64,000 nt of DNA from an uncultured Bacillota bacterium (GCA_942493145.1 OW818679.1:399566-463565), one strand, 5' to 3'. Counted from the first letter of the stretch, positions 16,745-40,278 are shown. The notes: generated by a model not told the origin, from the letters alone. Program-made: numbers and translations.

Positions 16745-16745
16745 A

Positions 16746-17484: not shown

Positions 17485-17964
17485 ATGTTTAATATAGGCG
17501 ATAAGATCGTATACCCTATGCATGGAGCAGGTGTCATTGAATCCATCGAAGAAAAAGAGATTCTCGGTCAAAAACAATGCTATTATATTATGAAAATGCC
17601 AGTTGGGGATATGAAGCTTATGATTCCTATACAGAGTGTAGATGGCATAGGTGTCAGAGAAGTAGTTGGCAGTGATGCTGTTAAGAGGGTTTTTCAGATT
17701 TTGAAGGACCAGAGGACCAATGTAAATAACAACTGGAATAAACGCTATAGAGAAAATATGATTAAAATAAAGAGCGGCGATATTTTTGAAGTTGCCGATG
17801 TTGTCAGGTCATTGATGATCCGTGAAAAGGAAAAAGGCCTGTCGACTGGTGAGAGAAAGATGCTCAACAGCGCCAGACAGATACTTATAAGTGAATTGGT
17901 CCTTGCACAGGATACCGATCAGTATGAGGTTGAAAACGCAATTAATGTTTTCCTCGAATTGTGA
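17485..17964 (+). CDS. carD: CarD/CdnL family RNA polymerase-binding transcription factor
   Basis: The N-terminus FNIGDKIVYPMHGAGVIESIEEKEILG is the CarD_CdnL_TRCF RNAP-interaction domain. The RBS AAGGAG precedes the ATG. Confidence 0.9.
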   Translation: MFNIGDKIVYPMHGAGVIESIEEKEILGQKQCYYIMKMPVGDMKLMIPIQSVDGIGVREVVGSDAVKRVFQILKDQRTNVNNNWNKRYRENMIKIKSGDIFEVADVVRSLMIREKEKGLSTGERKMLNSARQILISELVLAQDTDQYEVENAINVFLEL

Positions 17965-18013: not shown

Positions 18014-19084
18014 GTGATGAACAGGGTAATAAAATTCTCATTTGCAGCTGTTGGTGCTGTTACAGGGATTACACTGACGAGGATTTTCATGGTGCCGAAG
18101 CTCACCGAATCAAGCCTGATAACGGTGATTTACATTATTGCTGCAATTCTGGCTGGGCTGCTGTTCTATTTTTCCGGATTAAAAATAATAAATATAGTAA
18201 TGGATTTCTTTGACAGGGTCGAGCTCAGACTTCAGAGCATGACCCTTTATGAGCTTGCGATGAGTTCTGCGGGCCTTATCATTGGCCTTATCATAGCCAA
18301 TTTGGTTACCATACCTATAAATAAAATTGAAATAGTCGGCACACCCATATCGGTATTTGTCAATATACTTTTTGGAAGCCTTGGAATTGCAATTGCCCTT
18401 GTGAAAAAGAATGAGAGTATCATGGATGCTTTCAAAGGGAAATCTGCAAATTCCAAATCCGGACATGGCTATTCGCAGCCTAAGGTTTTCGATACCAGTG
18501 TTATTATTGACGGCAGGATTATTGATATTTGCAGAAGCGGGTTCCTGGAAGGTGAATTCGTAATCCCGAGTTTTGTTCTTGAAGAACTCAGGCATATTGC
18601 CGACTCGGCAGACGGGATTAAAAGGAACAGGGGCAGACGAGGGCTGGATGTGCTTAATGAATTGCAGACAGAGCTTAAGTTACCAATAAGGATAGAGAAT
18701 GTTGACATTTCACCAGATGCAGAAGTGGACAATGAACTGCTCAAGCTGACGGAGAAGCTGGGCGGAAAGGTACTCACTATTGATTACAATCTCAGCAAGG
18801 TTGCAGTCTTTCAAAAGGTACCGGTATTGAATATAAATGATCTTGCGAACGCACTGAAGCCCGTTGCATTACCGGGTGAAGACATGATGGTGCAGGTTAT
18901 TAAGGATGGTAAGGAAAACGGCCAGGGTATAGGCTACCTTGAAGATGGTACAATGATAGTTATAGAAGGTGGCAGGAGACACATCGGCGAAAGCGTTAAT
19001 GTAACAGTTACGAGTACGCTGCAGACTGCAGCCGGCAGGATGGTTTTTGCCAAACCCAAATATAACATAGAACGTGTAATATGA
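18014..19084 (+). CDS. yacL: PIN/TRAM domain membrane protein (YacL family)
   Basis: 356 aa. It has four N-terminal TM helices, a PIN domain (VFDTSVIIDGRI) and a C-terminal TRAM domain (GESVNVTVTSTLQTAAGRMVFAKP). Confidence 0.88.
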   Translation: MMNRVIKFSFAAVGAVTGITLTRIFMVPKLTESSLITVIYIIAAILAGLLFYFSGLKIINIVMDFFDRVELRLQSMTLYELAMSSAGLIIGLIIANLVTIPINKIEIVGTPISVFVNILFGSLGIAIALVKKNESIMDAFKGKSANSKSGHGYSQPKVFDTSVIIDGRIIDICRSGFLEGEFVIPSFVLEELRHIADSADGIKRNRGRRGLDVLNELQTELKLPIRIENVDISPDAEVDNELLKLTEKLGGKVLTIDYNLSKVAVFQKVPVLNINDLANALKPVALPGEDMMVQVIKDGKENGQGIGYLEDGTMIVIEGGRRHIGESVNVTVTSTLQTAAGRMVFAKPKYNIERVI

Positions 19085-19117
19085 CCGGGGGATCCGGCTT
19101 TGTAGAATAAAAATCGG

Positions 19118-19146
19118 GCAGGGTGCGCCAAGTACCCTGCTTTTGT
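19118..19146 (+). terminator. Rho-independent terminator after yacL
   Basis: GGCAGGGT pairs with ACCCTGC, followed by TTTTGTT. Confidence 0.65.
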
Positions 19147-19192
19147 TATAATTGGCGTTGTTCGCTAATGGGAAATAGGAGAGAATATTGAT

Positions 19193-19930
19193 ATGATGAC
19201 GAATAATATGATGTCAACTGACAGTATACGGGGGAAAAAGGTCTGTGCCTTGATAGTAGCTGCCGGCAGGGGCACAAGGATGAATATGGACCAAAACAAG
19301 CAATATGTAGACATTGCCGGAAAGCCGGTGCTGGCCAGGACGATACAGGCTTTTGAAGGATGCGGTGCTGTTGATGAAATAATAGTTGTGGTCAATGAAC
19401 AGGACTTATCCTACTGCAGGCGTGAAATCATCGAAAAGTACGCGTTCATTAAAGTAAAGTCATTGGTTGGGGGCGGCGCAGAAAGACAGGATTCGGTCTA
19501 TAACGGACTCCTTCAGCTGAACGATGAATATGGGCTGGTACTTGTTCACGATGGCGCCAGACCTTTTATTGATAATAATGGTATAATCAGGTGCATGGCG
19601 GAAGCTGAAAAATTCGGATCAGCCTGCATAGCTGTACGTGTAAAAGATACAGTAAAGAGGGCAGACGAAGAAGGCTTCATTGCTGAAACGCCTGACAGGA
19701 GCAGTCTGTGGCAGGTACAGACTCCTCAGGCATTTAAATATGAAATAATAATTAAGGCTTACCAAAGCGCTGCAAAAGATGGGTTCAGGGGAACGGACGA
19801 TGCTGTACTGGCTGAAAGGCTGGGGTACCGGACGAAACTTGTGCCGGGAAGCTATTATAACATCAAAATAACTACAAAAGAAGACCTACTGATTGCAGGA
19901 GCTATCGCCAGTATGGAACAGAATGGCTGA
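19193..19930 (+). CDS. ispD: 2-C-methyl-D-erythritol 4-phosphate cytidylyltransferase
   Basis: AAGRGTRM P-loop-like motif, VLVHDGARPF and VQTPQAF motifs. The true start may be one of the internal Met codons near 19196-19214. Confidence 0.92.
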   Translation: MMTNNMMSTDSIRGKKVCALIVAAGRGTRMNMDQNKQYVDIAGKPVLARTIQAFEGCGAVDEIIVVVNEQDLSYCRREIIEKYAFIKVKSLVGGGAERQDSVYNGLLQLNDEYGLVLVHDGARPFIDNNGIIRCMAEAEKFGSACIAVRVKDTVKRADEEGFIAETPDRSSLWQVQTPQAFKYEIIIKAYQSAAKDGFRGTDDAVLAERLGYRTKLVPGSYYNIKITTKEDLLIAGAIASMEQNG

Positions 19931-19957
19931 TGCCGGAAATAATGGAGGGGAATATAA

Positions 19958-20695
19958 ATGATATCAGTCGAAAACCTTACCAAGAGGTTTAATGGTTTTA
20001 CTGCAGTTGACAATATCAGCTTCAATGTAAATAAAGGTGAAATTTTCGGTCTTGTCGGTGAAAACGGAGCAGGGAAAACCACCACGCTCAGAATGCTGGC
20101 CACCATGCTAAAGCCGACTTCAGGAATTGCCAGTATGAAAGGGTATGATATTTTATCTGAACCGGAAAAGGTCCGGGCAAATATAGGCATACTCTTCGGA
20201 GGCGAGGCCGGATTGTATGACAGGCTTACGGCCGCGGAGAACATAGCATATTTTGGCGAGCTGAACGACATGGACAAGGATGAGATAAAAGGAAGAACGG
20301 CTTATCTCGCCAAATTCTTCAACATGGAAGAATATATCAACAAAACAGCGGGGAAGTTTTCCAAGGGAATGAAGCAGAAGGTCGCATTTGCACGATCCAT
20401 AATCCATGATCCGGACATAATGCTTTTTGACGAGCCTACCTCTGGCCTTGATGTCTCTGCAATTAAAAATGTGCACGATTTCATACTGGAGTGTAAAAGC
20501 GAATGCAAGACCGTTATCTTTTCAAGCCATTCCATGGTTGAGGTGGAAAAGCTCTGTGACAGATTAGGTATAATACATAAGGGGAAATTGGAATTCAGCG
20601 GTACTTTCGACGAGCTGAGAGAAAAATATGGGGAAGGGAACCTTGAGGAAATATTCCTTGAAATAGTAGAGGACAATGAAACGGTGGGGGGGTGA
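19958..20695 (+). CDS. ABC transporter ATP-binding protein (NatA-like, ABC-2 exporter)
   Basis: Walker A motif GENGAGKTT, signature FSKGMKQK and Walker B motif IMLFDEPTSGLD. It overlaps the permease gene by 4 nt. Confidence 0.9.
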   Translation: MISVENLTKRFNGFTAVDNISFNVNKGEIFGLVGENGAGKTTTLRMLATMLKPTSGIASMKGYDILSEPEKVRANIGILFGGEAGLYDRLTAAENIAYFGELNDMDKDEIKGRTAYLAKFFNMEEYINKTAGKFSKGMKQKVAFARSIIHDPDIMLFDEPTSGLDVSAIKNVHDFILECKSECKTVIFSSHSMVEVEKLCDRLGIIHKGKLEFSGTFDELREKYGEGNLEEIFLEIVEDNETVGG

Positions 20696-21924
20696 TGCGG
20701 ATGAAGGCAAAGTATGTGTGGATAGTGCTTAAGAAGGAAGTTAAGGACATAATTAGAGACAAGAAAACGGTCATCACCAGTATCGCAATACCCATGGTGA
20801 TCATTCCACTGTTAAATATCCTTGTAGGCGGCGGAATGCAGGACTTTCAGAAGGGCATCAATGAGAACGTAACCATAGCTCTCACGGAGAACTCTGATAA
20901 CGAAGCAACAAGAAAGCTTGTGTCCGAGAGGATCATCAAGGATTACGAAAATATCAGGCTGGTAGAAAATGACGGCACGAATGCTGCTGAATCAGTTCAG
21001 AGCGGTGCTGTCAGGGTGGTTATGGAATTTGAAGAGGGTTATGCTGAAAAGTTGAAGGATGGAAAACCATTCAGAATATCGCTGCTTTATGACAAATCCA
21101 AAACCAAATCGGAAGTTGGACTCGAGATACTTACAAGCGCCATTGACAGTTTTAACAATTCAGTCGTCAATGAAAGATTCACTGCCCTTGGATTGGATAA
21201 GGAGCTGCTGGAACCCACTATAATTGAGAATAAAAATGTCGCTGATGAAAAACAGGCGGGAAATAATACAATTGTAATGATGATACTGCCTCTCATGCTG
21301 GGCATGCTTGTTGTTGTAGGAGGGATACCGGCGGCAACCGATCTGGTTGCAGGCGAAAAGGAGAGGAACACCTTTGAGCCGCTGCTTTCGACAAAGCCGG
21401 ACAGGGGCTCGCTTTTGATGGGTAAATATCTTACTGTAACACTTTTTTCAATGGTAAGTGTAATTGCGATCGTAGCAGGTATGGTCATAGGATACCTTAT
21501 CAATCCCAATTCTCTTACAATGGGTACGAGTAATCAAATTTCAAGCTTTTCAATAGAACCTCTGGCGGCATTTTTATCAATTGTCATTGCGGTTGCACTC
21601 GGCATGACATTTTCCGGAATTCAGATAGCACTCAGCACATATGCAAAATCCTTCAAGGAAGCCCAGACATATATGTCTTTCCTGATATTCATAGCGATTA
21701 TCCCCGGATATGCAACGATGTTCATGCAGCCTGCAGATATCAGCCTGTATATGTATGCTGTACCTGTGCTCAACACTATAGCTGCCTTCAAAATGGTGCT
21801 TGGTGGGATGATCGACTACAGTGGTCTGCTGCTTGCACTGGTTACATCTGCGGTTTATGTGGTTCTGACACTCTGGCTGGCGGCACACCTGTTCAATAAG
21901 GAGAAGGTGCTGTTCAGGAGCTGA
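20692..21924 (+). CDS. ABC-2 type transporter permease (NatB-like)
   Basis: 410 aa. It has an N-terminal TM helix, a large extracytoplasmic loop and five C-terminal TM helices. It is translationally coupled to the ATPase. Confidence 0.85.
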   Translation: MMRMKAKYVWIVLKKEVKDIIRDKKTVITSIAIPMVIIPLLNILVGGGMQDFQKGINENVTIALTENSDNEATRKLVSERIIKDYENIRLVENDGTNAAESVQSGAVRVVMEFEEGYAEKLKDGKPFRISLLYDKSKTKSEVGLEILTSAIDSFNNSVVNERFTALGLDKELLEPTIIENKNVADEKQAGNNTIVMMILPLMLGMLVVVGGIPAATDLVAGEKERNTFEPLLSTKPDRGSLLMGKYLTVTLFSMVSVIAIVAGMVIGYLINPNSLTMGTSNQISSFSIEPLAAFLSIVIAVALGMTFSGIQIALSTYAKSFKEAQTYMSFLIFIAIIPGYATMFMQPADISLYMYAVPVLNTIAAFKMVLGGMIDYSGLLLALVTSAVYVVLTLWLAAHLFNKEKVLFRS

Positions 21925-22121: not shown

Positions 22122-23075
22122 ATGAAAATAAAAAGTAGTATGATTGATAAGGAACTAAGAACTACTGGTAGAATAATGAAGATTATTACTAACAATTTTA
22201 CTGAATCAGGATTACGATTTTTAAATAAACTGCAGAATAAACGTAGGATTAAAATAAAAGATGAATCAATACAGTTCACCGAAGAGTGGATTCCCCGTAA
22301 AGATGGTTCCAAGCTTCGTATTTGTGTATTTAAACCGTTAAAATCCAAGGGAGATGTTCCTGGTTTTCTTTGGCTACATGGAGGAGGCTATGCACTCGGA
22401 GCACCAGAACAGGCAGAGATGATGGCAAAAAGGCTAATTGAAGCGAGCAATTGTGTTGTTGTAGCACCAGATTACCGTTTATCTGTTGAAGCTCCATATC
22501 CAGCAGCTCTGGAAGACAGCTATGAAGCCCTTTTATGGATGAAAAGCCATGCAAAAGAATTAGGAATCAGGGATAACCAGCTTATGGTAGGCGGCGACAG
22601 TGCAGGAGGTGGGTTAACTGCTGCACTTACACTTTATGCAAGGGACAAAGGAGAAGTAGCTATTGCATTTCAAATGCCATTATATCCAATGTTGGATGAT
22701 AGGATGACAAGTGAATCCGCTAAGGATAATAATGCTCCTGTTTGGAACTCGAAATCTAACTTTAGTTGCTGGAAACTATACCTTGGTGAGTTATTTAGTA
22801 CTATAAATGTGCCTTACTATGCTGCCCCTGCCAGGGCAGAAGATTACAGTAATCTTCCACCAACAGCCACTTTTGTTGGTGAATTAGAGCCTTTTAGGGA
22901 TGAAACTATTCAATATGTAGAAAATTTAAGAAAAGCTGGAGTTTCAGTTGATTTTAAAATATATAGGGGCTGTTATCATGCTTTTGAACAGATGTGCCCT
23001 AAAGCAGAGGTAAGCAAAAAAGCAATTTCATTCATTTTAAATTCATTTAAATATGCAGTAGAACATTATTTTTAA
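22122..23075 (+). CDS. Alpha/beta-hydrolase fold-3 esterase/lipase (hormone-sensitive-lipase family)
   Basis: 317 aa, intact. It has the oxyanion motif HGGGY and the nucleophile elbow GDSAGG. It is visibly more AT-rich than both flanks; the first 60 nt have 16 G+C. Confidence 0.85.
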   Translation: MKIKSSMIDKELRTTGRIMKIITNNFTESGLRFLNKLQNKRRIKIKDESIQFTEEWIPRKDGSKLRICVFKPLKSKGDVPGFLWLHGGGYALGAPEQAEMMAKRLIEASNCVVVAPDYRLSVEAPYPAALEDSYEALLWMKSHAKELGIRDNQLMVGGDSAGGGLTAALTLYARDKGEVAIAFQMPLYPMLDDRMTSESAKDNNAPVWNSKSNFSCWKLYLGELFSTINVPYYAAPARAEDYSNLPPTATFVGELEPFRDETIQYVENLRKAGVSVDFKIYRGCYHAFEQMCPKAEVSKKAISFILNSFKYAVEHYF

Positions 23076-23080: not shown

Positions 23081-24412
23081 ATGTTAAAACCTGCCGGGAA
23101 ATTAAAGGCCTTTATGCTAATAACACTTGCTGCAATATATTTAACTATGACAGCTTCGTGTTCTTCTAATTTAACGTCTCAGGACATCAGCAAGGTTACA
23201 GATAACAACAATAAAACCGAACAGGTCAAACTCAAGTTCATAAACAGTTGGGGCGGTGGAGATTCCAAGGCGGATACCCTGCAGATGGTCTTCGACAGGT
23301 TCATGAAGGATAACCCGGATATCGTAGTGGTGAATGAGTCGATGTTCGGGGATGATTTCCTGCCGAAATTAAAGACAGATTTTGCTTCCGGCAACAATCC
23401 CGACGTTTTTGGCCTTTGGCCAGGGTCGGATATAAAAACCCTTGTTAATGCCGGTAAGGTAGCCGATCTGACGGAAGTCCTGGATAAGGACAAGGAATGG
23501 AAAAGCAGCTTCGGAGATATGTGGGAGCTACACCACCTTTAACAACAGGATTTATGGGTTACCGGTCGAAATCATTTTTGAATGCTTGTTCATTAACACA
23601 GATTTGTTTGAAAGATATGGAGTCAGTGAGCCGAAATCATATGAGGACCTGAAAACAGCTGTTATCACCTTCCAGGAACATTATATCACTCCCATTGCGT
23701 ACAATTACTCTGCCGAAGGCACCTATATATACCAGAATATTCTGGCCAAGCTTGGGGGCAAGCAGGATGTAGAGAATCCGTTTTCAAACGGTGGAGTCGA
23801 CAGCTGCTACATTGATGCGATGAATTATATGAAGGATCTTTACCAGCTGGGGGCGTTTCCGGAGGATGCATACAAACTGACCAGCTATGACCGGAACAAC
23901 CTTTTCAAAAGCGGAAAAGCAGCTATGATAGTACAGGGCTCATGGTTCCTCGGAGAGGATGAGTTTATGAAGGCAGACAGCAAGGTTGATGTGATCAGGT
24001 TTCCATATATAAATGAAGGTAAATCAGACCGTTCATCAATAATATATGGCCTGGGTGCTGGAGTATTCTACATGAGCAGTGCCTCAGAGAGGATCCGGTT
24101 AAAAAGGAAGCATCGATAAGGCTGCTGAAGGCATTGACATCAAAGGAGACTGCAACTTTATTTGCGGAGAACACCGGCATGATAAGCAATGTAAAAATTG
24201 ATGACTCCCAGATAGGCTACAGCCGGCTTATAAAGATGGGCCAGAGCCTTCTTGGCGAGACCAGGGAATTGATAGGACCGCCCGACAGCTATATTGAGAG
24301 GTCTGTTTGGGAAGATGTGATAGTGGACCAGTTCCTCTATGTCCTGGAAGGCAGAAAGACAGCTGAAGAGGTCTGGAACGAAGCTTTGAAGGCAGGAGCC
24401 GCAGGACGTTAG
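23081..24412 (+). pseudogene. Family-1 extracellular solute-binding lipoprotein (sensor-associated SBP), frameshifted
   Basis: Three collinear fragments (23081-23542, 23586-24119, 24134-24412) together span one ~444-aa SBP. They run from the signal peptide with Cys (LTMTASCSS) to the C-terminal EVWNEALKAG. Frame changes occur near 23525 and 24090. Confidence 0.85.
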
Positions 24413-24428
24413 GAAGGCAGGGGGAGCT

Positions 24429-26274
24429 GTGGACTTCAGAAAGGTGTCGGAATACAACAGGAAGCTTGTAGCCAAAAGCCTGAAAAACATTTTCAGGTTC
24501 TATAAAGACCTGTCCATCAAGCGCAAGCTGCTGCTTGTGCTTAACCTGCAGATTCTGATCCCCTTGATTCTTATAAGCTATCTTAGCTACAAAAGCTCTG
24601 AAGAAATCTTAAAGAACAAATCCATGGATTATACCCAGGACATACTGGGCATGATCGAGCTCAGGTTGAAGGATTACGTAAATAACCTTACTGTCATTTC
24701 ACAGGACCTTCTGTCTGATAAAAGCATATATGACATATTGAGCACCGATAACGAGGATAATGACCTTCTTAAAAACTACGAGGATGAATACGTGATTAAC
24801 AACATATTCAGAAAGGTCATACTCTCGAGAAAAGAGATTCAATCCATCTGCATTATCTCCAACGGGCAGCAAAGCACATACTTGTCCGACAATACCTCAA
24901 GGAAAATCAACATCAAAGATGTCATAAACTATGAGGATATGCTATCCAAGGCGCGGGAAGGAGAGGGAAAGGTCGTATGGTACCTTGAAATAAAGGAAAG
25001 ACGTGCGAAAAATGTTTTTCTGATCAGGACAATTTATAATTTGAATACCTTCGAAGAGATCGGCCTGCTTGTAATCCTTACAAACATGGAGTTCCTGGAA
25101 AACGTGTACCAGGACATGATGAATGAGGATATGCAGGATATAGCGATCATCACGGGCAACAATGAACAAATAGTGAGTATGAACCCTGAGAACAGATACT
25201 TGTTTGACAGGGACCTTCAGCAGATCGTCAGCGGAGACAAGGGCTGGACCATAGATGAAGAGGGGGTGCCCTCATTTCATTTGTTTCCATGAAGAATCCC
25301 GACTGGGGGGTGGTTTCATATATCTCCCTTGACAGATTGTACCGGGAAATTGACATTCTGAAGCAGCGGATCATTCTCATAGGATTCATATGCATTCTCA
25401 TTCTGTCCATGCTGAGTATACTCATTTCCTTTGATTTCATCAATCCTGCATGAACAAGCTTGTAAAAGGCATGAGAAAGGTGAAGGGCGGGCATAACAAG
25501 CGTCCGCATAGATGTCGACAGGGGGGATGAGCTTGGGGTTTTTGAGCAGGACCTTCAATGAAATGGTTGAGGAGATAAACCATTTAGTCACATGGAAGTA
25601 CAGTGAACAGATAACACGCAAGGATGCAGAGCTCAAGGCTCTTCAATCGCAAATCAATCCGCATTTTCTGTTTAATACGCTGGAATCTATAAACTGGATG
25701 GCACTGTTTGAACAATGTCCCTGAAATATGTGATACCGTCACAGCGCTTTCATCTATAATGGAAGCCGGCATAGGGAGGGATGACAAACTAATAACAGTG
25801 GAAGAGGAGTTCTGCTATATTGACAATTATATACGTATACTTAAGAACAGATTTGAAGACAGGATAGAGCTCAGAAAAGATGTGCAGTATGATGTTCTGA
25901 AGATCCTGATCCCGCGGCTGTTGATCCAGCCTCTAGTTGAAAATGCCGTTTATCTTGGAGTCGAAAAGATAAGAGGGAAGGGTATTATCAATCTGAGGGC
26001 TTTTTCTGAGGGAGAAACCATGAAAATTGAAGTCGAGGATAATGGACAGGGAATTGAAAAAGATGACCTTGATGGTATCAATGAAAGGCTGTCGGTAGAT
26101 AACGAGACTTATTTCAATCACCTGCAGACGAAAAACAACAAGAGCATAGGCATAGATAAGTGAACCGCAGGATCAAGCTTTTTGACGGGGAGGATTACGC
26201 CCTCCGAAAATCGAAAGCCGACAGGCAGATGCTTTACGAAGGCTATTGTTACTATACCCGCTGAAGCAAAGTAA
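24429..26274 (+). pseudogene. YesM-type sensor histidine kinase (TM-sensor-HAMP-His_kinase-HATPase), multiply frameshifted
   Basis: Fragments are 24429-25292, 25512-25724 and 25708-26163, plus unlisted short pieces. The HAMP region (DELGFLSRTFNEMV), H-box (LKALQSQINPHFLFNTL) and N/G boxes (LIQPLVENAV, VEDNGQGI) all sit in different frames. The tail VNRRIKLF...IPAEAK ends at 26274. Confidence 0.85.
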
Positions 26275-26362
26275 TAGTGGGGGGAGGTTGAAATTAAGTT
26301 CGGAAAGAGGCACATTGGGAAACATTGGGTAAGTATATCGGCAAATAAACATGGAGTGTAAA

Positions 26363-27996
26363 ATGTTCAAGGTTTTAATAATCGATGATGAGCCTGTAAT
26401 ACGGAAGGGCTTGAAAAACATCATCAACTGGAACAGGTTTGACTGCGAAGTTTGTGGTGAAGCCGCTGATGGTATTGCGGGTGGAGAGCTTATAAAGCAG
26501 CAGCTCCCGGATATTGTATTCACCGATATCCGTATGCCTGAAGTGGACGGATTGTCGATGCTTCGAGATATAAAGGACCTGATACCCGACAGCAAGGTTA
26601 TAATCCTGACGGGCTATCGGGATTTTGACTATGCCCAGGAAGCGATAAAGCTTGGAGCCTTTGATTTTATTATGAAGCCTTCAAAAATCGAAGAACTCAC
26701 GGCTGTTGTAAAGAGAGCTGTCAGGGAACTTAAATTCCAAAGGGATAAAACCGAGGAAATCGATAAGCTCAAGAAGCTTTTTGAGCAGAACATACCCATA
26801 CTGAGGGAAAAGCTTTGCTGTGACATCATTTACGGCATAAATACCAATAGTGATGAGATACATGCAAAGATGGAGCTCTTCAATATCCATATAGAACGGT
26901 TCAGGCTGGTAGTCGTTGAGATTGAAGATGAAGATATGCAGAAAATGGAGAACGACCAGTATAACGAGCAGCTCTATCAGTTCGGCATCATCAACACCTT
27001 TGACGAGGTGTTTGCCGAAGATTTCAGGATCATGAGCATTTCCCTGAACAGTAAAAGGACTGCATTCGTTGTACAGCCATACGAAATGAAAGATGATTAC
27101 CTGGAAATCATAAATAACCGGTGCACTTATATGCAGGACATAATACAGAACTGCTTCGGATTTACAGTGACCATGGCCCTTAGTACCGAGGGCGATGGCG
27201 CGATGCAGCTTCCGGCAAAGCTTAAGGAATGTCAGGAAGTACTGGAACACAAATTTTACATCGGAAACAATTCAATCATTTCGTACATGGACATGAATTC
27301 ATTCTTTAAATTTACCGATTATTCCATTCTGGACGAGCACCAAACAGCACTTATGATTGGTATCAAGACCGGGAATGAGGCTGCAGTCAGGGAAAAAGCA
27401 GCTGAATTATACGGTTGCATCAACAGCCTGGGGGAATATGAACAATGAAAATCTGCGCAACTCTTATTGGAATGCCATATCTTCAATAAACGACATCAGA
27501 CTTTCGGTGGCGGAGGCAAATGATGAAAAGAGCGGCAAGTACAGGGATCTCGGCAGCCTGAAGAAGATGCTGGAAAAGACCTCGGACAGGAAGACGCTTC
27601 ATGATCTTCTTGAGGAGATAGCAGTAAGTGTGACTACTAAGGTAAACAACTATAACAACAAAAGCCTGAAGCTCATTTTGAGAAAGGCAATTGACTATTT
27701 GAACGCACATTACAATGAGCCGATAACGTTGAATGAGGTTGCCGAGCACACTTATGTCAGTACCTTTTATATAAGCAGGATGTTTAAAAAAAGAGCTGGG
27801 GAAGAATTTTGTGGACTATTTAAATGGAATCAGGGTGGAAAGAGCCAGGGAACTGCTTAAGGATGTGAAGTACAAGACCTACGAGGTGGCTGAGCAGGTT
27901 GGTATACCTGATGCCCATTATTTTTCAAAGATTTTCAGAAGATATACAGGTATGACTCCCACAGAATACAGGGAGCAAAAAAATACACTTCTATAA
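26363..27996 (+). pseudogene. YesN-type response regulator (CheY receiver + AraC HTH), frameshifted
   Basis: The receiver MFKVLIIDDEP...DIVFTDIRMPEVDG is intact. The body continues in a second frame from ~27440. The second AraC helix-turn-helix (IRVERARELL...GIPDAHYFSKIFRRYTGMTPTEYR) is in a third frame from ~27811. Confidence 0.85.
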
Positions 27997-28225
27997 GACA
28001 ACATATCGCAACATCAAACAATATAAAGCAATATGCTCTATTCATTTAACTTCAGAAAATTCTTAAACTGAATACAGGTACATATGTTGCATCAAACATT
28101 TTGGATGCAACATTATGAAAACAGATTTGGGACAAATAGGCCGGGGGGTGGGTTGCACTGTGGCTGCAATTGTTCAGGTCAGACCTGTATCAGGTTCAAA
28201 ATGTTCAAAAGATTTATTCAGAACC

Positions 28226-29135
28226 ATGAAAAAAAACTGGGCGTTTTTTGCCATGCTGCTGCCCGGTGTAATTGTTTTGATAGTCAACAATTACATACCC
28301 ATGTTCGGTGTAGTAACAGCTTTAAAAAGTACAGATTTCATGGCAACTCTTTTTAACAGCCTGATCCAAAGTGATTGGGTAGGTTCGAATAATTTCAGGT
28401 TCTTCTTCGAAACGCCGTATGCCTATCAGACAACCCGCAATACCATCCTGTATAACCTTGCATTCATCATACTTGATCTGATAGTGCCGATATTTCTTGC
28501 AGTATTACTTAATGAGCTGCAGGGGAAGAAAACTCTCAAGGGTTTATCAGAACCTTATGTTTCTCCCATTTTTTCTTTCCTGGATTGTCGTGGGTTATCT
28601 TGCATACTCATTCTTCAGCATTGATTTTGGGTTTATCAACAGAGGCGTATTGGATGCACTGGGGTTGGAACGGGTGCAATGGTACTTTGAACCTAAGTAC
28701 TGGCCGTTCATCATTACTTTCTTTCAGATGTGGAAGTACACGGGGTATAACATTGTGGTCTATATTGCCGCCATCTCCGGCATCAACAATGAGTACTATG
28801 AGGCGGCGGCTATTGACGGAGCAAAGAAACTGCAGCAGATACGGTATATCACCCTTCCCATGCTGCAGCCAATGATGATCATCCTCACGCTGTTTGCGGT
28901 AGGAAGGATATTCAATGCGGATTTCGGTCTCTTTTTCAATGTTACCCGTAACAGCGGCGCACTGTATCAGACGACCAACGTCATTGATACCTATGTATAC
29001 AACGCGCTGCGCAATTCAAGTGATATTGGGATGACGGCTGCGGCAGGATTGTATCAGGCAGTGGTCGGCTGTATTACCGTCAGTATAGCAAACCTTGTTG
29101 TAAGAAAAATTGACAGTGAAAAAGCGCTGTTTTGA
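28226..29135 (+). pseudogene. LplB-type ABC sugar permease, frameshifted
   Basis: Two overlapping fragments (28115-28624 and 28497-29135). The EAA loop EAAAIDGAKKLQQIRYITLP is in the second frame. The length of 910 nt is not a multiple of 3. Confidence 0.85.
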
Positions 29136-29155
29136 GGAGGGGCCATATGTTCAGC

Positions 29156-30066
29156 AAAAAGACATTGGGAAATCCCAATCAGATATCGGGAGCAAGCAAT
29201 ATTCTTTTAAATCTGTTTTTCATCACATGCTTCTATTGCCTGCATCGCACCGATACTATTGGTTATCATCATATCGTTTAGTGACGAGATGGAAATCCTC
29301 AAAAACGGGTACAGCTTCTTCCCGAGATATTTTTTCAATGAAAAGGCATATGACTATATTGCCGCATCAGGGGAGGCTATTTTGCGAGCTTACGGGGTTT
29401 CACTGCTTGTTACGGTTATCGGGTCAATCCTCAGTCTGCTGATCATCAGCATGTATGCATATCCATTGGCCAGGCAGAGTTTTAAATACAAAACACTTTT
29501 TTCCTTTATTGCATACTTCACGATGATCTTTGGCGGAGGGCTCATCCCCTGGTATATGGTCTATACACACATCTTTAAAATAAAGGACAGCATATGGATC
29601 CTCATCTTTCCGTACCTTTTAAACGCATGGTTCGTATTGATCATGAGGACATTTTATAAGACTACCATACACGAATCCATCCTGGAATCCGCCAGAATTG
29701 ACGGAGCGGGAGAGTTCAGGACATTCTTTCAGATTGTACTTCCGCTGTGCCGCGCAGGGCTGGCTACAATAGGCCTGTTCTGTACGCTGAACTACTGGAA
29801 CGACTGGTATCTTCCGCTGGTTTTTGTCAACAATCCGAAGATGTACAATATCCAATACCTGATGTACCAGATACTTGCTGAGCATTCAGTTTCTGTGCAG
29901 AGCTCCTCACTTTTTCAGCAATCAATCCCTGGCGTTTAAGGATCTTCCCAGTGAGAGTGCCCGTATGGCGGTTGCGGTTTTGTCCATTGGGCCTATCATA
30001 TTTGCCTATCCGTTCTTTCAAAAATATTTTGTAAAAGGCCTTACAATAGGGGCTGTTAAAGGATGA
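29156..30066 (+). pseudogene. LplC-type ABC sugar permease, frameshifted
   Basis: The N-terminal piece starts at the ATG at 29156 (MFSKKTLGNP...). The core is 29259-29939, containing ESARIDGAGEFRTFFQIVLP. The C-terminal piece is 29875-30066. Three frames are used. Confidence 0.85.
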
Positions 30067-30135
30067 TTCCGGTGCAGTTGCCCAGAGAGAGCGAACTGCC
30101 CGTATCATAAAGACAAATAAATAGGAGGTTTTTTT

Positions 30136-31659
30136 ATGAAAAAAATGTATTGTATCGTTCTGGCCGTGGTTCTGTCACTGGCTATGCTGATGACAGAGCT
30201 GTACGGTGCTGCCGGCGACGCCAGGCACACCCTGCACAGAGAATAATCCGGTACAGGAACCCGTTGTTTCAGAAAAGCCGGCTGACTTGGTTTGGTATTT
30301 GGTAGGCCCACAGCAGGAACCTGAAACAGAAAAGATTACACAGGCTGCGAACACTTATCTGAAGGACAAACTGAATGTTGAGGTTAACCTGACTGTTCTG
30401 GGTTATGGTGACCCCTACAACAACAAGGTAAACACAATGCTCGCTGCAGGTGAACGCATTCGATGATATTGCTTCACAGCCGGTTGGGCTGCAGACATCA
30501 AAGCGAATTCATCCGCAGGATATTTCAGAGAACTTGACAGCTACCTGGCGAAATCCGCCACCATCACAGACATCGTCGGGCAGGCCTTCATGGACGGTAT
30601 CAAGATCAACCGGAAAAACCTTTGCGGTTCCTTGCCGCAAGGAACAGGTTCATAACTGGGGCTTTATCATCCAGAAGGCTCTTGCAGATAAATATAATGT
30701 AGATCCTGCAAGCATCAAGACATTGGAAGATTTGGAACCGGTATTTGAAACTATAAAAGCAAAGGAAACGAATATCATACCCTCTGCTCGTCGTTGAAGG
30801 ATGGAAGCACCATTTAAGCTTCTGGACTGGGATCCGATGAGTGATGACTCAATACCCGGTGCATTGTATCCGGATAACAGGGACACAAAGATCATCAACC
30901 AGTTCCTTGCTCCCGAATCCATTGCAATGTACAAGAAAATGAGAGATTACATGCAAAAGGGTTATATCCCTGCTGACGCAGCTACAATGCAGAATTTCAA
31001 TGATCATCTGAAGACGGGAAATTATTTTGCCATTTGCCAGTCCATGAAGCCGGGAAAAGCTGCTGAAATGACATCAAGCACCAGCGTTGAATGGCTTGAC
31101 GTCAACATCACCGCACCGGTTATGGCTAACCGTGATGCATCCGGCGGAGCGCTGCTGGCCATTCCTACCTCTGCAAAATACCCGGATCAGGCATTTAAAT
31201 TCATCGAAATGCTGTATACCGATAAATATCTGAATAACCTTTTTGTATATGGCATTGAAAATGAACATTATGAAAAGGTATCCGAAAATGTTGTGAAGCT
31301 GGACCGATAACACCGGTTACAGAGCAGGCAATGGCTGGAGATTCGGAGATCAGTTCAAAGATTACCTTATGGACAATGAAGATCCTGATAAATGGAACAA
31401 GTTCCTGGAGTACAACAAGGCAGGATTGGTTATGAACAGCCTCGGCTTTGCATTTGACAAGACGAGTGTGGATACTGAAGTGGCAGCATGCAAGGCAGTT
31501 GTTCAGGCATATTACAAGCAGTTGTTCACGGGATCTGTCAATATTGACAAGACAGTTGCACAGATGGAAGCGGAACTCAAACAATCCGGGGTTGATAAGG
31601 TTATAGCCGAAATGCAGACCCAGTATGACGCATTTCGCGCAAAAAATGCAGGAAAGTAA
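30136..31659 (+). pseudogene. LplA-type large extracellular solute-binding lipoprotein, multiply frameshifted
   Basis: The signal peptide MKKMYCIVLAVVLSLAML starts at 30136. Fragments follow at 30206-30466, 30450-30797, 30801-31310 and 31369-31659. The total of ~507 codons matches LplA-type SBPs. Confidence 0.85.
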
Positions 31660-31831
31660 AAAAAAACAAAAATCCCCGATTTCAACTGCGGAAGGCCGTT
31701 TGACATGACGGTTTTCCAGGAGGGATCAGGGGGAAAGGACTACACTTCGAGGGAATGTCCCGGGAGGGTTTGGGATGTCCTGGTTATCGGGCTATGTTGA
31801 GGTTTTTCTTTAATGAGTGGAGGTACCCGCT

Positions 31832-34288
31832 ATGAGATATGGTTATTTTGATGATGCAAATAGGGAATATGTTATTTCCACGCCCAAAACCCCATATCCA
31901 TGGATCAATTATCTGCGGATTCGAGGATTTCTTTTCGCTGGTATCAAGCACCGCGGGCGGTTACTGCTTTTACAAGGATGCAAGACTCCGGCGCATGACA
32001 AGGTACCGATACAACAGTGTTCCTATTGACAACGGGTACAGGTACTTCTGCATTAACGATGACGGGGATTTCTGGTCCCCGGGCTGGATGCCTGTCAGGA
32101 AGGACCTGAATCATTACTGAATGCAGACATGGGATGGGATATACTAAGGATATCCGGTGAGAGAGGCAACGGGATCCAGGTTGACATCTTGTACTGCTGG
32201 TGCCTTTAGATACAACTGTGAATTTACAAAAGGTTATGATTACAAATACCTGTAACGATAATAAAAATTTAAGGTTTTTTCTTTTGTTGAATTTTGTCTC
32301 TGGAATGCATATGACGACATGACCAATTTTCAGAGGAATTTTAGTACAGACGAGTTAGAAATTGTAGGAGCTCGGTCATTTATCACAAAACTGAGTACTA
32401 GGAAGACGCAATCCCTTATTCATTTTATTCCGCTAAATACTGGGATTAGTGCGGTTTGATACGGATAGGGACAGCTTTGTCGGGATTGCATAACGGGTTT
32501 GACGCTCCGAAGGCGGTTGTCGAAGGAAGGGCATCCAACTCCGTAGCAGACGGTTGGTCTCCCATCGCGTCACATTACATTGAGCTTGAACTTAAAGCAG
32601 GAGAGTCAAAGGAATTAGTGTTCATTCTGGGATATGCCGAGAATCCGGAAGAAGAGAAATGGGAAGCCAAAGGGATAAATAAAAAAAGCAGGGCAAAAGC
32701 AACGATACAGAGGTTCAATTCAACTGAGGCCGTAGATAAAGCTTTTTCTGGGCTTGGGGCATATTGGGAGGCGCTGCTGTCAAAATATACTGTAGAAACC
32801 TCCGGACGAAAAGCTTGAACAGGATGGTAAACATATGGAACCAGTATCAATGCATGGTCACCTTCAACATATCACGCAGCGCCTCGTATTTCGAATCGGG
32901 CGTTGGACGCGGGATGGGGTTCAGGGATTCAAACCAGGACTTGCTCGGGTTTGTCCATCAGATACCAAAGAGGGCAAAGAGAGAATACTGGATCTCGCCG
33001 CCACACAACTGGAAGATGGAGGAACTTACCACCAGTATCAGCCTTTGACGAAGAAGGGGAATCACGAGATAGGTGGCGATTTCAACGATGACCCCCTATG
33101 GCTGGTGTTGGCCACGGCTGCATATATAAAGGAGACAGGGGACTTCAACATTTTGGAGGAATATGCCCCATTCAATAATGATATCAATAAATCCGACAGC
33201 ATTTATGAGCATCTCAGGAGGGCGTTCAAACATGTGACGGAAAACCTTGGGCCCCATGGTCTTCCCCTGATAGGCAGGGCAGACTGGAATGACTGCCTGA
33301 ACCTGAACTGCTATTCTCAACACGCCTGATGAATCCTTCCAGACAACCACGTCAAGGGACGGAAGAGTGGCTGAATCTGTGCTGATTGCAGGTATGTTCA
33401 CCTTCATCGGTCCTGAGTTTGTACGGATGTGCGAATATCTGGGGAACGATGATGAGGCTAAACAGGCTAAAATGGACATTAAAAGGATGAAGGAGGCCAT
33501 CCTCAAGCATGGGTATGAAGGAGAGTGGTTCCTGAGGGCATACGACGACGCTGGGAAAAGGATTGGAAGTGCTGATAACGAAGAAGGAAAGATTTATATA
33601 GAACCACAGGGCTTCTGTGTTATGGCAGGAATCGGGACTGAAGACGGAAAGGCTATTAAAGCTCTTGATTCAGTAAAGAAAAACCTTGATACGCCATATG
33701 GTATGGTCTTGCTCAACCCCGGGTATACAAAGTATCACCACAACTTGGGAGAGATATCAACTTACCCTCCGGGATACAAGGAAAATGCCGGAATATTCTG
33801 CCACGTCAATCCCTGGATAGTTGCTGCAGAGACAGTCCTCGGGACGTGGGGACAGAGCGTTCGAATGCTATACGAGGATCACCCCGGCATACCTTGAAGA
33901 TATAAGCGAGATCCACAGGACTGAACCATATGTGTATGCGCAGATGATAGCCGGGAAGGATGCCAAGGAGGCACGGCGAAGCAAAAACTCCTGGTTGACC
34001 GGAACTGCGGCACGGAACTTCGTTGCAGTATCACAGTGGATTCTGGGGATCAAGCCGGGGTATGAGGGCCTTATGGTAGACCCCTGCATTCCTTCGGATT
34101 GGGAGGGCTTCACAGTTAAGAGATACTTCCGGAATGCCATGTACAATATATCCGTAAAGAACCCGGATAAGGTTTCCAAGGGTATAAGGAAGCTCACGGT
34201 TGACGGGAAAGAATTCATTGGGAATGTCCTGCCTGTGTTCAGGAATGGCAGAGAGCATTCCGTCGAGGTAGTCACGGGTAATGACTGA
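31832..34288 (+). pseudogene. GH94 cellobiose (cellodextrin/chitobiose) phosphorylase, heavily degraded
   Basis: The peptides [158 protein letters not shown] and NSWLTGTAA are collinear with cellobiose phosphorylase. They are spread over all three frames. My manual frame tracing finds at least eight breaks. Confidence 0.9.
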
Positions 34289-34334: not shown

Positions 34335-34805
34335 TCAAATGATTGTGACACAGCTGAAGACCTGCAATCCAACGCCCTGACCGAATTGCGTCAGACCCTC
34401 GCCCGTTGTGGCTGTAATTCCGATGCATTTTTCCGGCATGTCCAGAAGCTTTGACAGGCTGATCCTCATTTCAGGTATCCTGGGTGTTATTTTAGGCGTC
34501 AGGCCCTCTATAGATATTGAGAGGTGGACAATTTTGCTTTCGCCAAGGTATTTAAGCGCTTCTGCAAGATAAACCCTGCTGTCGGTTATCCCTTCCTCAA
34601 GACACATTTTGTCGCTGACAGGCCCCAGTATATTGACACAGGTTACACCGGACACCGCATTGGTAATGGAATGAAGCACCACGTCGGCATCGCTGTTGCC
34701 CAGAAGCGGAGGATGGTCTTCAAATACCACTCCTGCGAGAATGAGAGTTTTTTGCTTATCTTCAAAATCAAAGTTATGGCTGTCCTGCCCTATACCAACC
34801 TTCAT
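34335..34805 (-). CDS. IspF (YgbB) family protein, divergent: 2-C-methyl-D-erythritol 2,4-cyclodiphosphate synthase homolog
   Basis: 156 aa, intact, and alignable along its full length to IspF (GIGQDSHNF...GNSDADVVLH...TATTGEGL). The conserved GHSDADV histidine reads Asn. The DIGKxFPDTDP loop is unrecognisable. Confidence 0.75.
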   Translation of the reverse strand: MKVGIGQDSHNFDFEDKQKTLILAGVVFEDHPPLLGNSDADVVLHSITNAVSGVTCVNILGPVSDKMCLEEGITDSRVYLAEALKYLGESKIVHLSISIEGLTPKITPRIPEMRISLSKLLDMPEKCIGITATTGEGLTQFGQGVGLQVFSCVTII

Positions 34806-34991: not shown

Positions 34992-37091
34992 TTGGAGGAT
35001 AGCTTTGTGGCTGATGTGTTAGGTGGACGGCTGAAAAAAAGGAATCACAGAATAACCAACCCCGTATTCATAATTATTGTTACCCTCTTAGTTCTCATTG
35101 GAGCTGCTTTTGTAGCATACATGTGGAATATAAGCATAAGAGCAACGGAAGATAATGCGAAAAAGCTGGCCTGGGCAGCAGAGGCAAGTTTTCAGAAGTC
35201 TGTAATAGTAAGTCTCAAAGCAGATATAAGTGATATTGAACGTGAAGAATACAAGGAAATCAAGAGCAGCCTGATGAGGTTGGTGAAGATTGAGAATGAG
35301 GTTCGCTTCGCTTATATTTATGCTGAAAGAAACGAAAAGATCTATTTTCTAGCGGATTCCGAGCCGACTGATTCTATCGATTATTCGCCACCGGGTCAGG
35401 AATTCTGGGAGGCGGATGAAGTAATCCTTCAGCCTTTCAAAAGTGGACAGACAGTGGTTACCGAGCCGGTTACCGATCGATGGGGTACTTGGGTCAGCGT
35501 CCTTGTTCCAATGAGAAGTATGGAAACAGGAGATGTGGTAGCTGTTTTCGGAATGGATTATTCTGCCGGATCCTGGAATGATTATGCCGCCGAAAGATCT
35601 CTGATGTCAGGAATTGTTGGGTTTTGCCTGATTGCAATTATCATAGCTCTTTATGTCATGCTAATTCAAAACAAAGAATTGCGGGGAGAAAAGAAAAAAT
35701 TGATAGATATGGATTTAAGACTTAAAGAGCTGCTTGAAAGTCAACGGAACAAGGCAGTTTTGCTGGATAATCTGCCTGGTATGGCCTACCGGTGTGTTTG
35801 TGACCGGGACTGGACAATGCAGTTTCTGTCTGTCGGATGTTTTACATTGACCGGGTACAAACCTGAAAACCTTATCAATAACAAGGATATATCGTTCAAC
35901 CAGATAATAGCACCTGAATACCGGGAAACATTGTGGGGCGAATGGACCCGTGTGCTTGCCCTAAGAGAGCAGTTCAAGTTTGAATATGAAATAATTACTT
36001 CAGCGGGGCAACGAAAATGGGTGCTGGAGACAGGTCAGGGAGTTTTTTATGAAAATGAAAGGGTGGAGGCTCTGGAGGGTATAATCATAGATATCAACGA
36101 ATCAAAGCAGCGCCTCCTGCAGATTCAATACATGAAGGACTTTGATTTCATGACGGGACTAAACAACCGTAAATATTTCGAAGAGGAAAAAGTAAGACTG
36201 GATAAGGATGAATACCTTCCACTGTCTGTAATTATTGGTGATATCAACGGTGTCAGACTGATTAACGACACCTTTGGGCATGCGGAAGGAGATCGCATGA
36301 TTGCTGAGATATCAAAAATCATTCAGTGCTGCTGCCGCGAAGGGGATGTCCTGGCAAGAATCGGAGGGGATGAGTTCGGAATCCTTTTGCCGAAGACTAC
36401 ATTGGATGAAGTCAATGAAATTCTTCGAATGATGAAAAATGCGTTAGAAGAATACCATCTTTTTAAAGCTGACGAATCTCGTTGTATAAACATGTCTACC
36501 GGCTACGGAATAAGGGAGGATATGGGCCAAAGCATTCAGGAGGTATGCAGGGAAGCTGAAGAATTCATGAACAAGCATAAGCTGTTGGAACATGAGAGCT
36601 ATCATAGCGCTATTATTTCTACTATCATGGGTACCATGTATGCAAGAAGCCAGGAGACAGAGCAACATGCCGAGCGGCTAGCCACATTGTCAAAGATGAT
36701 CGGACAGAAATTGGACCTTCCACAAAAGAGTATTGATGAACTCGAACTGTTCGCCATGCTGCATGATATCGGTAAAGTGGGGATCGATGATCATATATTG
36801 AATAACCCAGGCAAACTTAACGACGAAGAATGGGTAATCATGAAGAAGCATCCGGAGATAGGCTACAGGATAATGATGTCGACCGAGGAATTGAAATACA
36901 TTGCTGATTATATTCTGTCACATCATGAGCGTTGGGATGGAAAGGGTTATCCTCGAGGGCTTAAAGGAGAGGATATTCCGCTGCTATCCCGAATTCTGGC
37001 AGTTGCAGATACTTATGATGCAATGACAGAAGACCGGGTTTATAGGAAAGCGCTATCCAGAGAACAGGCAATTGAAGGAAATCCGGAATAA
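34992..37091 (+). CDS. Membrane sensor protein with PAS, GGDEF (diguanylate cyclase) and HD-GYP (c-di-GMP phosphodiesterase) domains; 3' end frameshifted
   Basis: 699 aa with a TTG start and two TM helices flanking an extracytoplasmic domain. It contains RIGGDEFGILLP, LHDIGKVGI and HHERWDGKGYPRGL. The last ~18 conserved codons (IRNNAGTQFDPNIARLFIENI) continue in the +1 frame to 37145 after an extra G near 37077. Confidence 0.85.
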   Translation: MEDSFVADVLGGRLKKRNHRITNPVFIIIVTLLVLIGAAFVAYMWNISIRATEDNAKKLAWAAEASFQKSVIVSLKADISDIEREEYKEIKSSLMRLVKIENEVRFAYIYAERNEKIYFLADSEPTDSIDYSPPGQEFWEADEVILQPFKSGQTVVTEPVTDRWGTWVSVLVPMRSMETGDVVAVFGMDYSAGSWNDYAAERSLMSGIVGFCLIAIIIALYVMLIQNKELRGEKKKLIDMDLRLKELLESQRNKAVLLDNLPGMAYRCVCDRDWTMQFLSVGCFTLTGYKPENLINNKDISFNQIIAPEYRETLWGEWTRVLALREQFKFEYEIITSAGQRKWVLETGQGVFYENERVEALEGIIIDINESKQRLLQIQYMKDFDFMTGLNNRKYFEEEKVRLDKDEYLPLSVIIGDINGVRLINDTFGHAEGDRMIAEISKIIQCCCREGDVLARIGGDEFGILLPKTTLDEVNEILRMMKNALEEYHLFKADESRCINMSTGYGIREDMGQSIQEVCREAEEFMNKHKLLEHESYHSAIISTIMGTMYARSQETEQHAERLATLSKMIGQKLDLPQKSIDELELFAMLHDIGKVGIDDHILNNPGKLNDEEWVIMKKHPEIGYRIMMSTEELKYIADYILSHHERWDGKGYPRGLKGEDIPLLSRILAVADTYDAMTEDRVYRKALSREQAIEGNPE

Positions 37092-37244: not shown

Positions 37245-37476
37245 TAGTTAGATCGATGACGGGAAGAAGAAACGGAAGCGTTCCCAAGAGAATGAGGTAA
37301 TATGGTGCAAGCCTCTGAGCAAGACTGTTTATACCCACCCCCGAGATGCAGCCGATGAGGTTGACGGATGAGCCCGATAAAGCTTTTTTTTTGAGTGGAA
37401 TATCGATTCAAATAGGGTGGTACCGCGGATAATGATCCGTCCCTTTGCATACATGCAATGGGACGTTTTTATTTTT
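37245..37476 (+). ncRNA. T-box riboswitch leader with intrinsic terminator
   Basis: It has the GA/K-turn element GATGA, an AGAGA bulge and the distal-loop GGTGCAA. The conserved T-box sequence AATAGGGTGGTACCGCG is at 37411-37427. The terminator hairpin CGTCCCTTTGCAT/ATGCAATGGGACG (37438-37465) is followed by a T-run. The C-rich specifier region ACCCACCCCC is compatible with a proline CCN codon, but I did not fold it. Confidence 0.8.
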
Positions 37477-37632
37477 GAAGAACCCATAAGCGGCGCATTA
37501 CGACGTTGCGTATCGGTCTCGGCGCATCATGGACATTGAAATAAAATTACGCTTCGCTCAATGTTCTACCTCACATATAACATATATGCTCCGGTTGCCT
37601 CGCCTCACGCGCCTTGTACTGCTTGCTTCTGA

Positions 37633-39227
<1,595 letters not shown>

Positions 39228-39366
39228 TACTATTTTTTTGTTCTATTAGCATATTCGTATAATTTATTTGAATTTTCTGTTAATACTATTAACATGATGA
39301 TGCTGCTGCGATTCAATTATGGTTTGCAGCAGGTCGCAGACCATATAGCAACAGTATTAATGGGGT

Positions 39367-40272: not shown

Positions 40273-40278
40273 TGCTTG

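Follow-up and report, generated by a model that had tools for sequence, protein, structure and literature searches.

The 64,000-nucleotide (nt) window analysed here, from an uncultured Bacillota bacterium (GCA_942493145.1, OW818679.1:399566-463565), carries at 23081-34288 a seven-gene locus for the sensing, uptake and phosphorolysis of cellobiose in which every gene is interrupted by frameshifts. The breaks are likely to be consensus or assembly indel errors, lying in patches over an otherwise intact and ordinary cellobiose locus. They would fall in kilobase-scale regions of low quality, such as those of thin or strain-mixed long-read coverage, and the organism itself probably has intact genes kept under purifying selection. 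Error of this kind would explain the almost pure spectrum of small insertions, the missing substitutions and stop codons, the short-range clustering and the compensating pairs, and would also explain why every gene within a patch is struck, whatever its function or strand. The death in every gene that a first-pass annotation saw in this locus is thus most probably not a biological feature.

Open reading frame (ORF) listings and maps of stop-free segments show the + strand of 23081-34288 as about 30 short open pieces that switch frame, with long ORFs elsewhere in most of the window. These pieces make up seven collinear genes, a sensor solute-binding protein (SBP), a YesM-type kinase, a YesN/AraC-type regulator, two permeases, an SBP with a DUF3502 domain and a GH94 enzyme:

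23081-24400, + strand: gene 1, SBP adjoining the two-component system (sensor SBP with a putative CuaD-like role); 2 frameshifts, at about 23528 and about 24087
24468-26290, + strand: gene 2, YesM-type membrane histidine kinase; 9-11 frameshifts, with clusters at 25263-25707 and 26158-26266
26363-27996, + strand: gene 3, YesN-type response regulator with a receiver and an AraC helix-turn-helix (HTH); 2 frameshifts, at 27431 and 27786
28151-29135, + strand: gene 4, ABC permease, LplB-like; 3 frameshifts, -1 at 28316, +1 at 28348 and +1 at about 28529
29132-30066, + strand: gene 5, ABC permease, LplC-like; 2 frameshifts, at about 29234 and about 29874
30127-31659, + strand: gene 6, transport lipoprotein SBP with a C-terminal DUF3502, LplA-like; 5-7 frameshifts
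31832-34288, + strand: gene 7, GH94 cellobiose phosphorylase; 13 (strict setting) to 18-20 (sensitive setting) frameshifts, including ten in the stretch 31916-32482

Clostridia allied to Anaerobacterium and Acetivibrio share a conserved cluster of seven genes, of which the locus is an ordinary example. The references were two Clostridia metagenome-assembled genomes (MAGs), GCA_026418695.1 (L081) and GCA_013336465.1 (L082), and Anaerobacterium chartisolvens GCA_003337415.1 (L084). Pfam domains follow one another on the pieces as SBP_bac_1, His_kinase with HATPase_c, Response_reg with HTH_AraC, BPD_transp_1, BPD_transp_1, SBP_bac_1 with DUF3502, and the GH94 supersandwich and catalytic domains. 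With tblastn of the L081 proteins and frame-aware alignment against intact L081, each fragment maps collinearly to one ancestral gene and every gene is of full length, and the conceptual proteins match those of L081 in size (436/440, 600/608, 541/542, about 303-322/322, 306-310/306, 506/508 and 814/813 amino acids (aa) for genes 1 to 7). The identities and order given by the first-pass annotation are therefore borne out by Pfam, by tblastn and by intact relatives with the same order, and its caveat that the fragments might not be collinear with single ancestral genes is answered by the frame-aware alignment it had proposed. Its statement that lengths and synteny are retained, with no insertion sequence (IS) element and no large deletion, agrees with the alignment against L081. 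The locus shows neither an IS element nor a repeat nor a large deletion, and the 64-kb window contains no repeat of 40 nt or more; promoter and terminator scans gave the same counts as in shuffled sequence.

At the level of single genes, SBP_bac_1/SBP_bac_8 matches both fragments of gene 1, which is 56% identical to residues 1-438 of the 440-residue L081 SBP. Gene 2 has His_kinase (PF06580) and HATPase_c and is collinear with the L081 (608 aa) and L084 (609 aa) kinases, its C-terminal third being 76% identical to L082; the intact orthologues additionally carry dCache_1 and HAMP. Gene 3, with Response_reg and HTH_AraC, is 83% identical over 541 aa to the L082 regulator (P0002), intact relatives being 540 aa long, and its homologues are named 'response regulator YesN' in JGI. 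A PF06580 and HATPase_c kinase next to a receiver and AraC HTH regulator is the composition of a YesM/YesN-type two-component system. The two permeases both match BPD_transp_1, gene 4 with 74% identity to the L082 permease and 67% to that of L081, and gene 5 with 66-70% identity to the L081 and L084 permeases over the full length. They are followed by gene 6, which has SBP_bac_1 and DUF3502 and 57-58% identity to the L081 and L084 SBPs over 506 aa, so the importer shows the LplABC-type arrangement of two BPD_transp_1 permeases and then a lipoprotein SBP of about 500 aa with DUF3502. This assignment holds at the family level only, because none of the six proteins other than GH94 attains the cut-off of an NCBIfam equivalog. 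A scan of genome contigs with the regulator fragment returned distant receiver-domain matches only and no syntenic loci.

The last gene is the most severely struck, yet its identity can be read from the corrected frame. PF06165 (GH94_b-supersand) and PF17167 (Glyco_hydro_94) match five of its fragments, at profile positions 9-251 and 63-420, so that both domains of the family are present. The conceptual protein aligns end to end with the Acetivibrio thermocellus cellobiose phosphorylase 3QDE (1-812 against 1-811, 1404 bits), a match that speaks for sequence error rather than decay. The next-best solved structures are other cellobiose phosphorylases, and the Cellulomonas/Cellvibrio gilvus enzyme 2CQS serves as a further comparison. 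Enzymes of other GH94 specificities score far lower (chitobiose phosphorylase 477 bits, cyclic glucan synthase 285, cellobionic-acid-type 167), which places the protein closer to characterised cellobiose phosphorylases than to any of these. It has 70-73% identity to 120 homologues, many of them named cellobiose phosphorylase, and contains the motifs RADWND and FCHVNPW, which we take to be catalytic. In contrast to the 3QDE and 2CQS enzymes, the window gene is readable only after 13-20 frame corrections, and the deposited sequence holds no uninterrupted GH94 reading frame.

Frameshifts were counted with a custom frame-aware protein-to-DNA aligner, once at a strict penalty and once at a sensitive setting, the latter verified for every gene on two or three references. 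Under the strict penalty there are 36 frameshifts and one apparent stop over the seven genes (2 in the first SBP, 9 in the kinase, 2 in the regulator, three in the first permease, two in the second, 5 in the second SBP and 13 in GH94), and under the sensitive setting about 45. Alignment of intact L081 proteins to intact L084 DNA, used as a control, gave 2 spurious events in 10.7 kb; at low penalties the aligner over-calls compensating pairs where homology is absent, as at the ClpC N-terminus, and both counts are given for this reason. With 36-45 frameshifts, the claim that every gene is interrupted stands, although the details shift: the single break that had been assigned to the LplB-like permease becomes three, two of which cancel each other 32 nt apart, and the minimum of eight breaks in GH94 rises to 13 to 18-20.

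The kind of lesion is as informative as the number. By the sensitive count, 29 events are +1, 8 are +2 and 8 are -1, giving 37 insertions to 8 deletions. Relative to the closest reference, no indel of 3 nt or more was found in the regulator or the first permease, and the second permease has a single extra codon. Long homopolymers are largely spared, with only 2 of the 62 runs of 5 nt or more in the locus struck (27431, where a G run of 4 is read as 5, and 27786, where an A run of 6 is read as 7), and most events lie where a base is repeated no more than three times. Of the insertions, four or more are plainly non-templated, among them a C within a run of T at 28349 and an A at 30197 that breaks a codon of the gene 6 lipobox, LMTGC being regained when this A is dropped. 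A strong bias towards inserted C on the + strand was considered and dropped, since near-optimal placements explain most events equally well as duplication of a neighbouring base. The events cluster over short distances, with 15 pairs of neighbours no more than 35 nt apart where 5.9 would be expected (P=5e-5), and several neighbouring ones form compensating pairs between which a few codons are legible only in the old frame, such as HGEAKN at 33968-33981. No robust in-frame stop was found in 3509 codons. The apparent one, a TAG at 32399, vanishes once the two indels flanking it are modelled, the original codons (…RRN…) being legible in the neighbouring frame.

Conservation of the conceptual proteins continues in full through all the breaks, as it would if the genes were functional through programmed ribosomal frameshifting or transcriptional slippage. 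This explanation is nevertheless highly improbable: the events mix +1, +2 and -1 with no shared motif nearby, only one of them lies in a slippery run (the A7 at 27786), and the short out-of-frame stretches between compensating pairs would still be mistranslated. A search for k-mers enriched near the lesions, aimed at methylation or slippery motifs, gave nothing after multiple testing. We know of no bacterium in which genes of ordinary metabolism are decoded through dozens of frameshifts of mixed type.

A more serious alternative, though still an unlikely one, is that the lesions are real, the locus and its dispensable neighbours having lost selection very recently under a lineage-specific, insertion-biased process of 1-2-nt indels, with loss of the cellobiose route, and selection preserving the genes that are needed. 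Damage throughout a functional unit of seven genes is what would be expected once any essential member fails, and the break in the regulator belongs to the deposited assembly, because its truncated 361-aa product (P0001, 100% identical) sits in a public protein collection. Disrupted reading frames, the first mark of a pseudogene cluster, are plainly present; a natural indel spectrum, with deletions equal to or exceeding insertions and a broad range of sizes, is not. Among 151 real bacterial pseudogenes with 696 indels, deletions outnumber insertions by 396 to 300 and sizes follow a power law (PMC6054270). These pseudogenes, from Ca. Burkholderia leaf-nodule symbionts, resemble the window in having multiple indels per gene and a preserved gene order (PMC6054270). 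They differ in that deletions are commoner, sizes follow the power law, about half of the insertions are direct repeats and nonsynonymous changes build up (PMC6054270), whereas in the window insertions dominate, all indels are of 1-2 nt and there is no nonsynonymous excess where a sister is available. Real decay would need insertions and deletions at 37:8 against a ratio of 0.76-0.94 in real pseudogenes and mutation-accumulation lines (PMC6054270), and the probability of at least 37 insertions among 45 events is 8e-8 at the published pseudogene ratio. It would also need none of the 45 indels to reach 3 nt, together with avoidance of long homopolymers.

Substitutions give a further view of the same question. 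The closest intact sister, L082, is a 4.3-kb MAG contig with a regulator 84% identical to that of the window, syntenic from the kinase C-terminus to the second permease only. The comparison therefore covers the kinase C-terminus, the regulator, the first permease and the N-terminus of the second, with 12 of the frameshifts inside. In a relative-rate test with outgroups, the window has 17+31+20+21 = 89 private amino-acid changes and the intact sister 27+27+17+20 = 91. Private single-nucleotide codon changes, nonsynonymous to synonymous (N:S), are 16:148 in the window and 12:139 in the sister, and because the window N:S of 0.11 matches that of the intact sister, purifying selection acted along essentially the whole window branch, contrary to what real decay would predict. 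At the conserved columns of 115 regulators, the window regulator has 1 private departure and the sister 3. Excess amino-acid change, a rise in N:S and nonsense codons, the signs of relaxed selection, are thus absent where a sister exists, and by four independent looks no substitutional decay is seen along the window branch in the genes of the locus, GH94 excepted.

The rarity of substitutions can also be set against known mutation rates. In mutation-accumulation studies of most organisms, 1.8-11.9% of mutations are indels, and the share reaches 26% in the bacterium at the extreme (PMC8717266; a regression is given in PMC4978911). From the indel share, at least about 3 substitutions per indel are therefore expected, and the locus data fit zero to two; real decay needs at most about 2, against a documented bacterial range of about 3 to 50. 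Since about 4.3% of random substitutions create a stop, the expected number of stops is 4.7-5.8 for 3 substitutions per indel and 7.8-9.7 for 5. At 4 indels per kb the lesions are too dense for quick build-up at known rates, and with slow build-up many substitutions and stops would be expected; real decay would have to reach this density with N:S unmoved.

Beyond the locus, the genes on both sides and further downstream are as follows:

22122-23075, + strand: upstream neighbour, outside the locus, intact esterase of alpha/beta-hydrolase fold (317-aa ORF, Pfam Abhydrolase_3 at 1e-57)
34335-34805, - strand: downstream neighbour, intact YgbB/IspF-family protein (156-aa ORF, Pfam YgbB over the full length)
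34992-37091, + strand: downstream neighbour, intact PAS-GGDEF-HD protein (699-aa ORF, Pfam PAS_3, GGDEF and HD_5)
37678-41720, both strands: second damaged patch with clustered small indels, including ProRS, the 251-aa-family gene, SH3+CAP, RluA and the PG_binding 5' end
37678-38865: archaeal-type prolyl-tRNA synthetase (ProRS), T-box-led, with several frame switches and an in-frame stop at 37999-38001
38870-39224: shortened gene, orthologous to an L083 hypothetical protein of 251 aa, that begins at about residue 87 immediately behind the ProRS stop
39293-40178: SH3+CAP secreted protein, split across frames (by eye and Pfam)
40200-41223, - strand: RluA-family pseudouridine synthase, with about eight frameshifts, six of them +2
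41449-42738: PG_binding_1 protein behind a c-di-AMP riboswitch, with a signal peptide from 41621 and a single -1 frameshift near 41717
46293-46905, - strand: SleB-like cortex hydrolase, split across frames (by eye and Pfam)
48260-49186: TrxB-like flavoprotein, split across frames (by eye and Pfam)

Damage is not special to the cellobiose locus: from 37.7 to 49.2 kb, seven or more genes unrelated to it, on both strands, are also frameshifted. Real decay would need five adjacent unrelated genes all to be dispensable. In RluA one of the events is a gain from (AC)2 to (AC)3 at 40498, and ProRS retains about 360 well-conserved residues and its C-terminal ...WGKAY. Clean stretches cover 1-23 kb, 34.3-37.1 kb, 41.8-45.3 kb and 49.3-64 kb and include ArgRS, DAHP synthase and a ClpC-like gene. 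Frameshifts at 7257, 8287 and 55949 proposed by a crude codon-usage hidden Markov model proved false, overlapping genes having been merged; by Pfam, DUF1934 and ArgRS are separate and intact. Similarly, a listed 352-aa PG_binding ORF with a TTG start is an artefact of the signal peptide being split off by the -1 frameshift near 41717. The intact YgbB/IspF-family ORF occupies 34335-34805, so this stretch holds no second GH94 remnant.

Several side features accompany these neighbours. The T-box leader ahead of ProRS (in 37247-38865) scores 81 bits, under the Rfam gathering score of 93, with E=5e-18, and the c-di-AMP riboswitch upstream of the PG_binding_1 gene is intact at 68 bits. The YgbB/IspF-family gene stands alone on the opposite strand between the GH94 and PAS-GGDEF-HD genes, with no other isoprenoid-pathway genes nearby.

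With the neighbours likewise struck, and with no substitutional decay, no nonsense codons and a spectrum unlike that of pseudogenes, the idea that the locus is a fossil of lost beta-glucan oligosaccharide use is not sustained. The natural clock that was to be read from differences in lesion density fails as well. Densities range per gene from 1.2 to 5.3 per kb by the strict count and up to 7.3 per kb by the sensitive one, and heterogeneity between genes is weak (chi-square p=0.24 strict, p=0.03 sensitive); the events are clustered and hence non-independent, and the lesions are no usable clock even if real.

Several observations weigh against assembly error and on the side of real decay. The damage begins shortly within the first gene of the locus and ends shortly before the close of the last, borders that an error model must take as chance and that selection explains directly. 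Intact genes abut the locus on both sides: no lesion occurs in the esterase, 6 nt upstream of it, in the ispF-like gene or in the GGDEF gene of 2.1 kb, for which the probability at the locus density is 7e-7, the GGDEF gene having 8.4 lesions expected and 0 seen. The intact 20 kb upstream and the clean state of the essential window genes (ArgRS, ClpC-like, DAHP synthase) are as selection predicts. In the second patch, about 80 residues present in the Thermus enzyme (about 367-447 in Thermus numbering) are missing from ProRS, and the 251-aa-family gene has lost its first 86 or so codons and a further 48 residues with a change of frame. These three deletions of about 150-260 nt within about 600 nt are a hallmark of real decay and go beyond simple base-calling error. 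Private amino-acid changes in RluA number 22 against 15 in the sister, a non-significant excess. Of 279 columns that do not vary among 120 homologues, GH94 differs at 14-18 (changes such as W to R, G to D and H to P), and comparably isolated homologues differ at 7 and 3; this excess is modest, consists mostly of transitions and is found in the gene with the densest indels. The closest GH94 homologue in the protein collection, at 73% identity, is too distant for a sister-based test of this most damaged gene. Finally, residual error dominated by insertions is not typical of every sequencing platform.

These points give some room to a variant in which the frameshifts are real and the organism, a Clostridium of free-living genome size (4.3 Mb) and kin of cellulolytic lineages, stands at the outset of genome decay before substitutions accumulate, an unusual insertion-biased process that yields almost only indels having just silenced the complete locus and scattered other genes. 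We regard this as doubtful. Among about 15 billion proteins, all the window products looked up stand alone as singletons at 90% identity, and the collections contain no conspecific sequence; the nearest relative, at 56-84% protein identity, is the digester-type MAG GCA_013336465.1. The source therefore belongs to a poorly sampled lineage. Nine products were looked up and found NCBI-only, without accession or name, which suggests that the source is an unannotated single-contig assembly (4,343,735 bp), a point in favour of assembly error.

The best-described counterpart of the locus is the cua cluster of Ruminiclostridium cellulolyticum (Ccel_2115-2109; PMC5663094, PMC6720390). It consists of two adjacent units, cuaD-cuaS-cuaR for a binding protein, a sensor and a regulator, and cuaA-cuaB-cuaC-cbpA for a binding protein, two permeases and a strict GH94 cellobiose phosphorylase, with no ATPase gene (PMC5663094). 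The two clusters share the same seven functions, the three-component sensor, the ATPase-less importer, the terminal position of GH94 and the division into two units of the same orientation. The parallel with cuaDSR, cuaABC and cbpA, drawn in the first-pass annotation, is thus supported for the functions (PMC5663094) and differs in detail for the importer, which in cua runs SBP-permease-permease and in the window permease-permease-SBP with an LplA-like DUF3502 tail on the SBP. Accordingly, the upstream SBP, kinase and AraC-type regulator and the terminal GH94 are those of a cua-type cluster, and the importer matches in content and not in its SBP-first order. The likeness is one of functions, and none of the matches listed in the protein searches carried a Ccel_2109-2115 name. 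Unlike the cua cluster, the window copy is frameshifted throughout.

Closer are the L081, L082 and L084 loci, which have the identical order SBP-kinase-regulator-permease-permease-SBP(DUF3502)-GH94, the same lengths and 56-84% protein identity; in contrast to the window, all their genes are uninterrupted, and none of these loci is experimentally characterised. In a further relative, L085 (6832-13677), an SBP-kinase-regulator module, with a regulator (P0039) 61% identical to that of the window, precedes an SBP-first transporter, so that this sensor family is coupled to two importer arrangements and the window sensor module falls in the same broad family as that of cua. L081 also differs from the window and A. 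chartisolvens in having an extra 990-aa GH94, of cellodextrin-phosphorylase size, at 18595-21567 right after its cellobiose phosphorylase. The syntenic GH94 of A. chartisolvens (15519-17711), called at 730 aa, is 53% identical to the L081 enzyme, to which the window enzyme is 72% identical. The last gene of this type of cluster may differ in specificity between lineages.

By analogy with the R. cellulolyticum cua system, the extracellular binding protein would report cellobiose to the YesM-type kinase, which would in turn phosphorylate the YesN/AraC-type regulator, and the latter would turn on the downstream permease-permease-SBP-phosphorylase unit. The importer, having no ATPase gene of its own, may borrow a shared ATPase to import cellobiose or cellodextrins, and the GH94 enzyme is predicted to cleave the imported cellobiose with phosphate to glucose-1-phosphate and glucose.

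If the breaks are errors, pseudogene calls, metabolic reconstructions of the type "cannot use cellobiose" and molecular-clock ideas drawn from this assembly would all be wrong. Regions of this kind can be flagged without reads by the type and size of indels, by nonsense codons, by testing relative rates against a sister and by whether the genes alongside are intact. If the breaks are real, the locus would be a rare snapshot of very early genome decay with an abnormal mutation spectrum. As a gene cluster, it adds a member to a conserved, uncharacterised variant of the cua-type cellobiose system, in which the same kind of sensor is joined to an LplABC-type importer.

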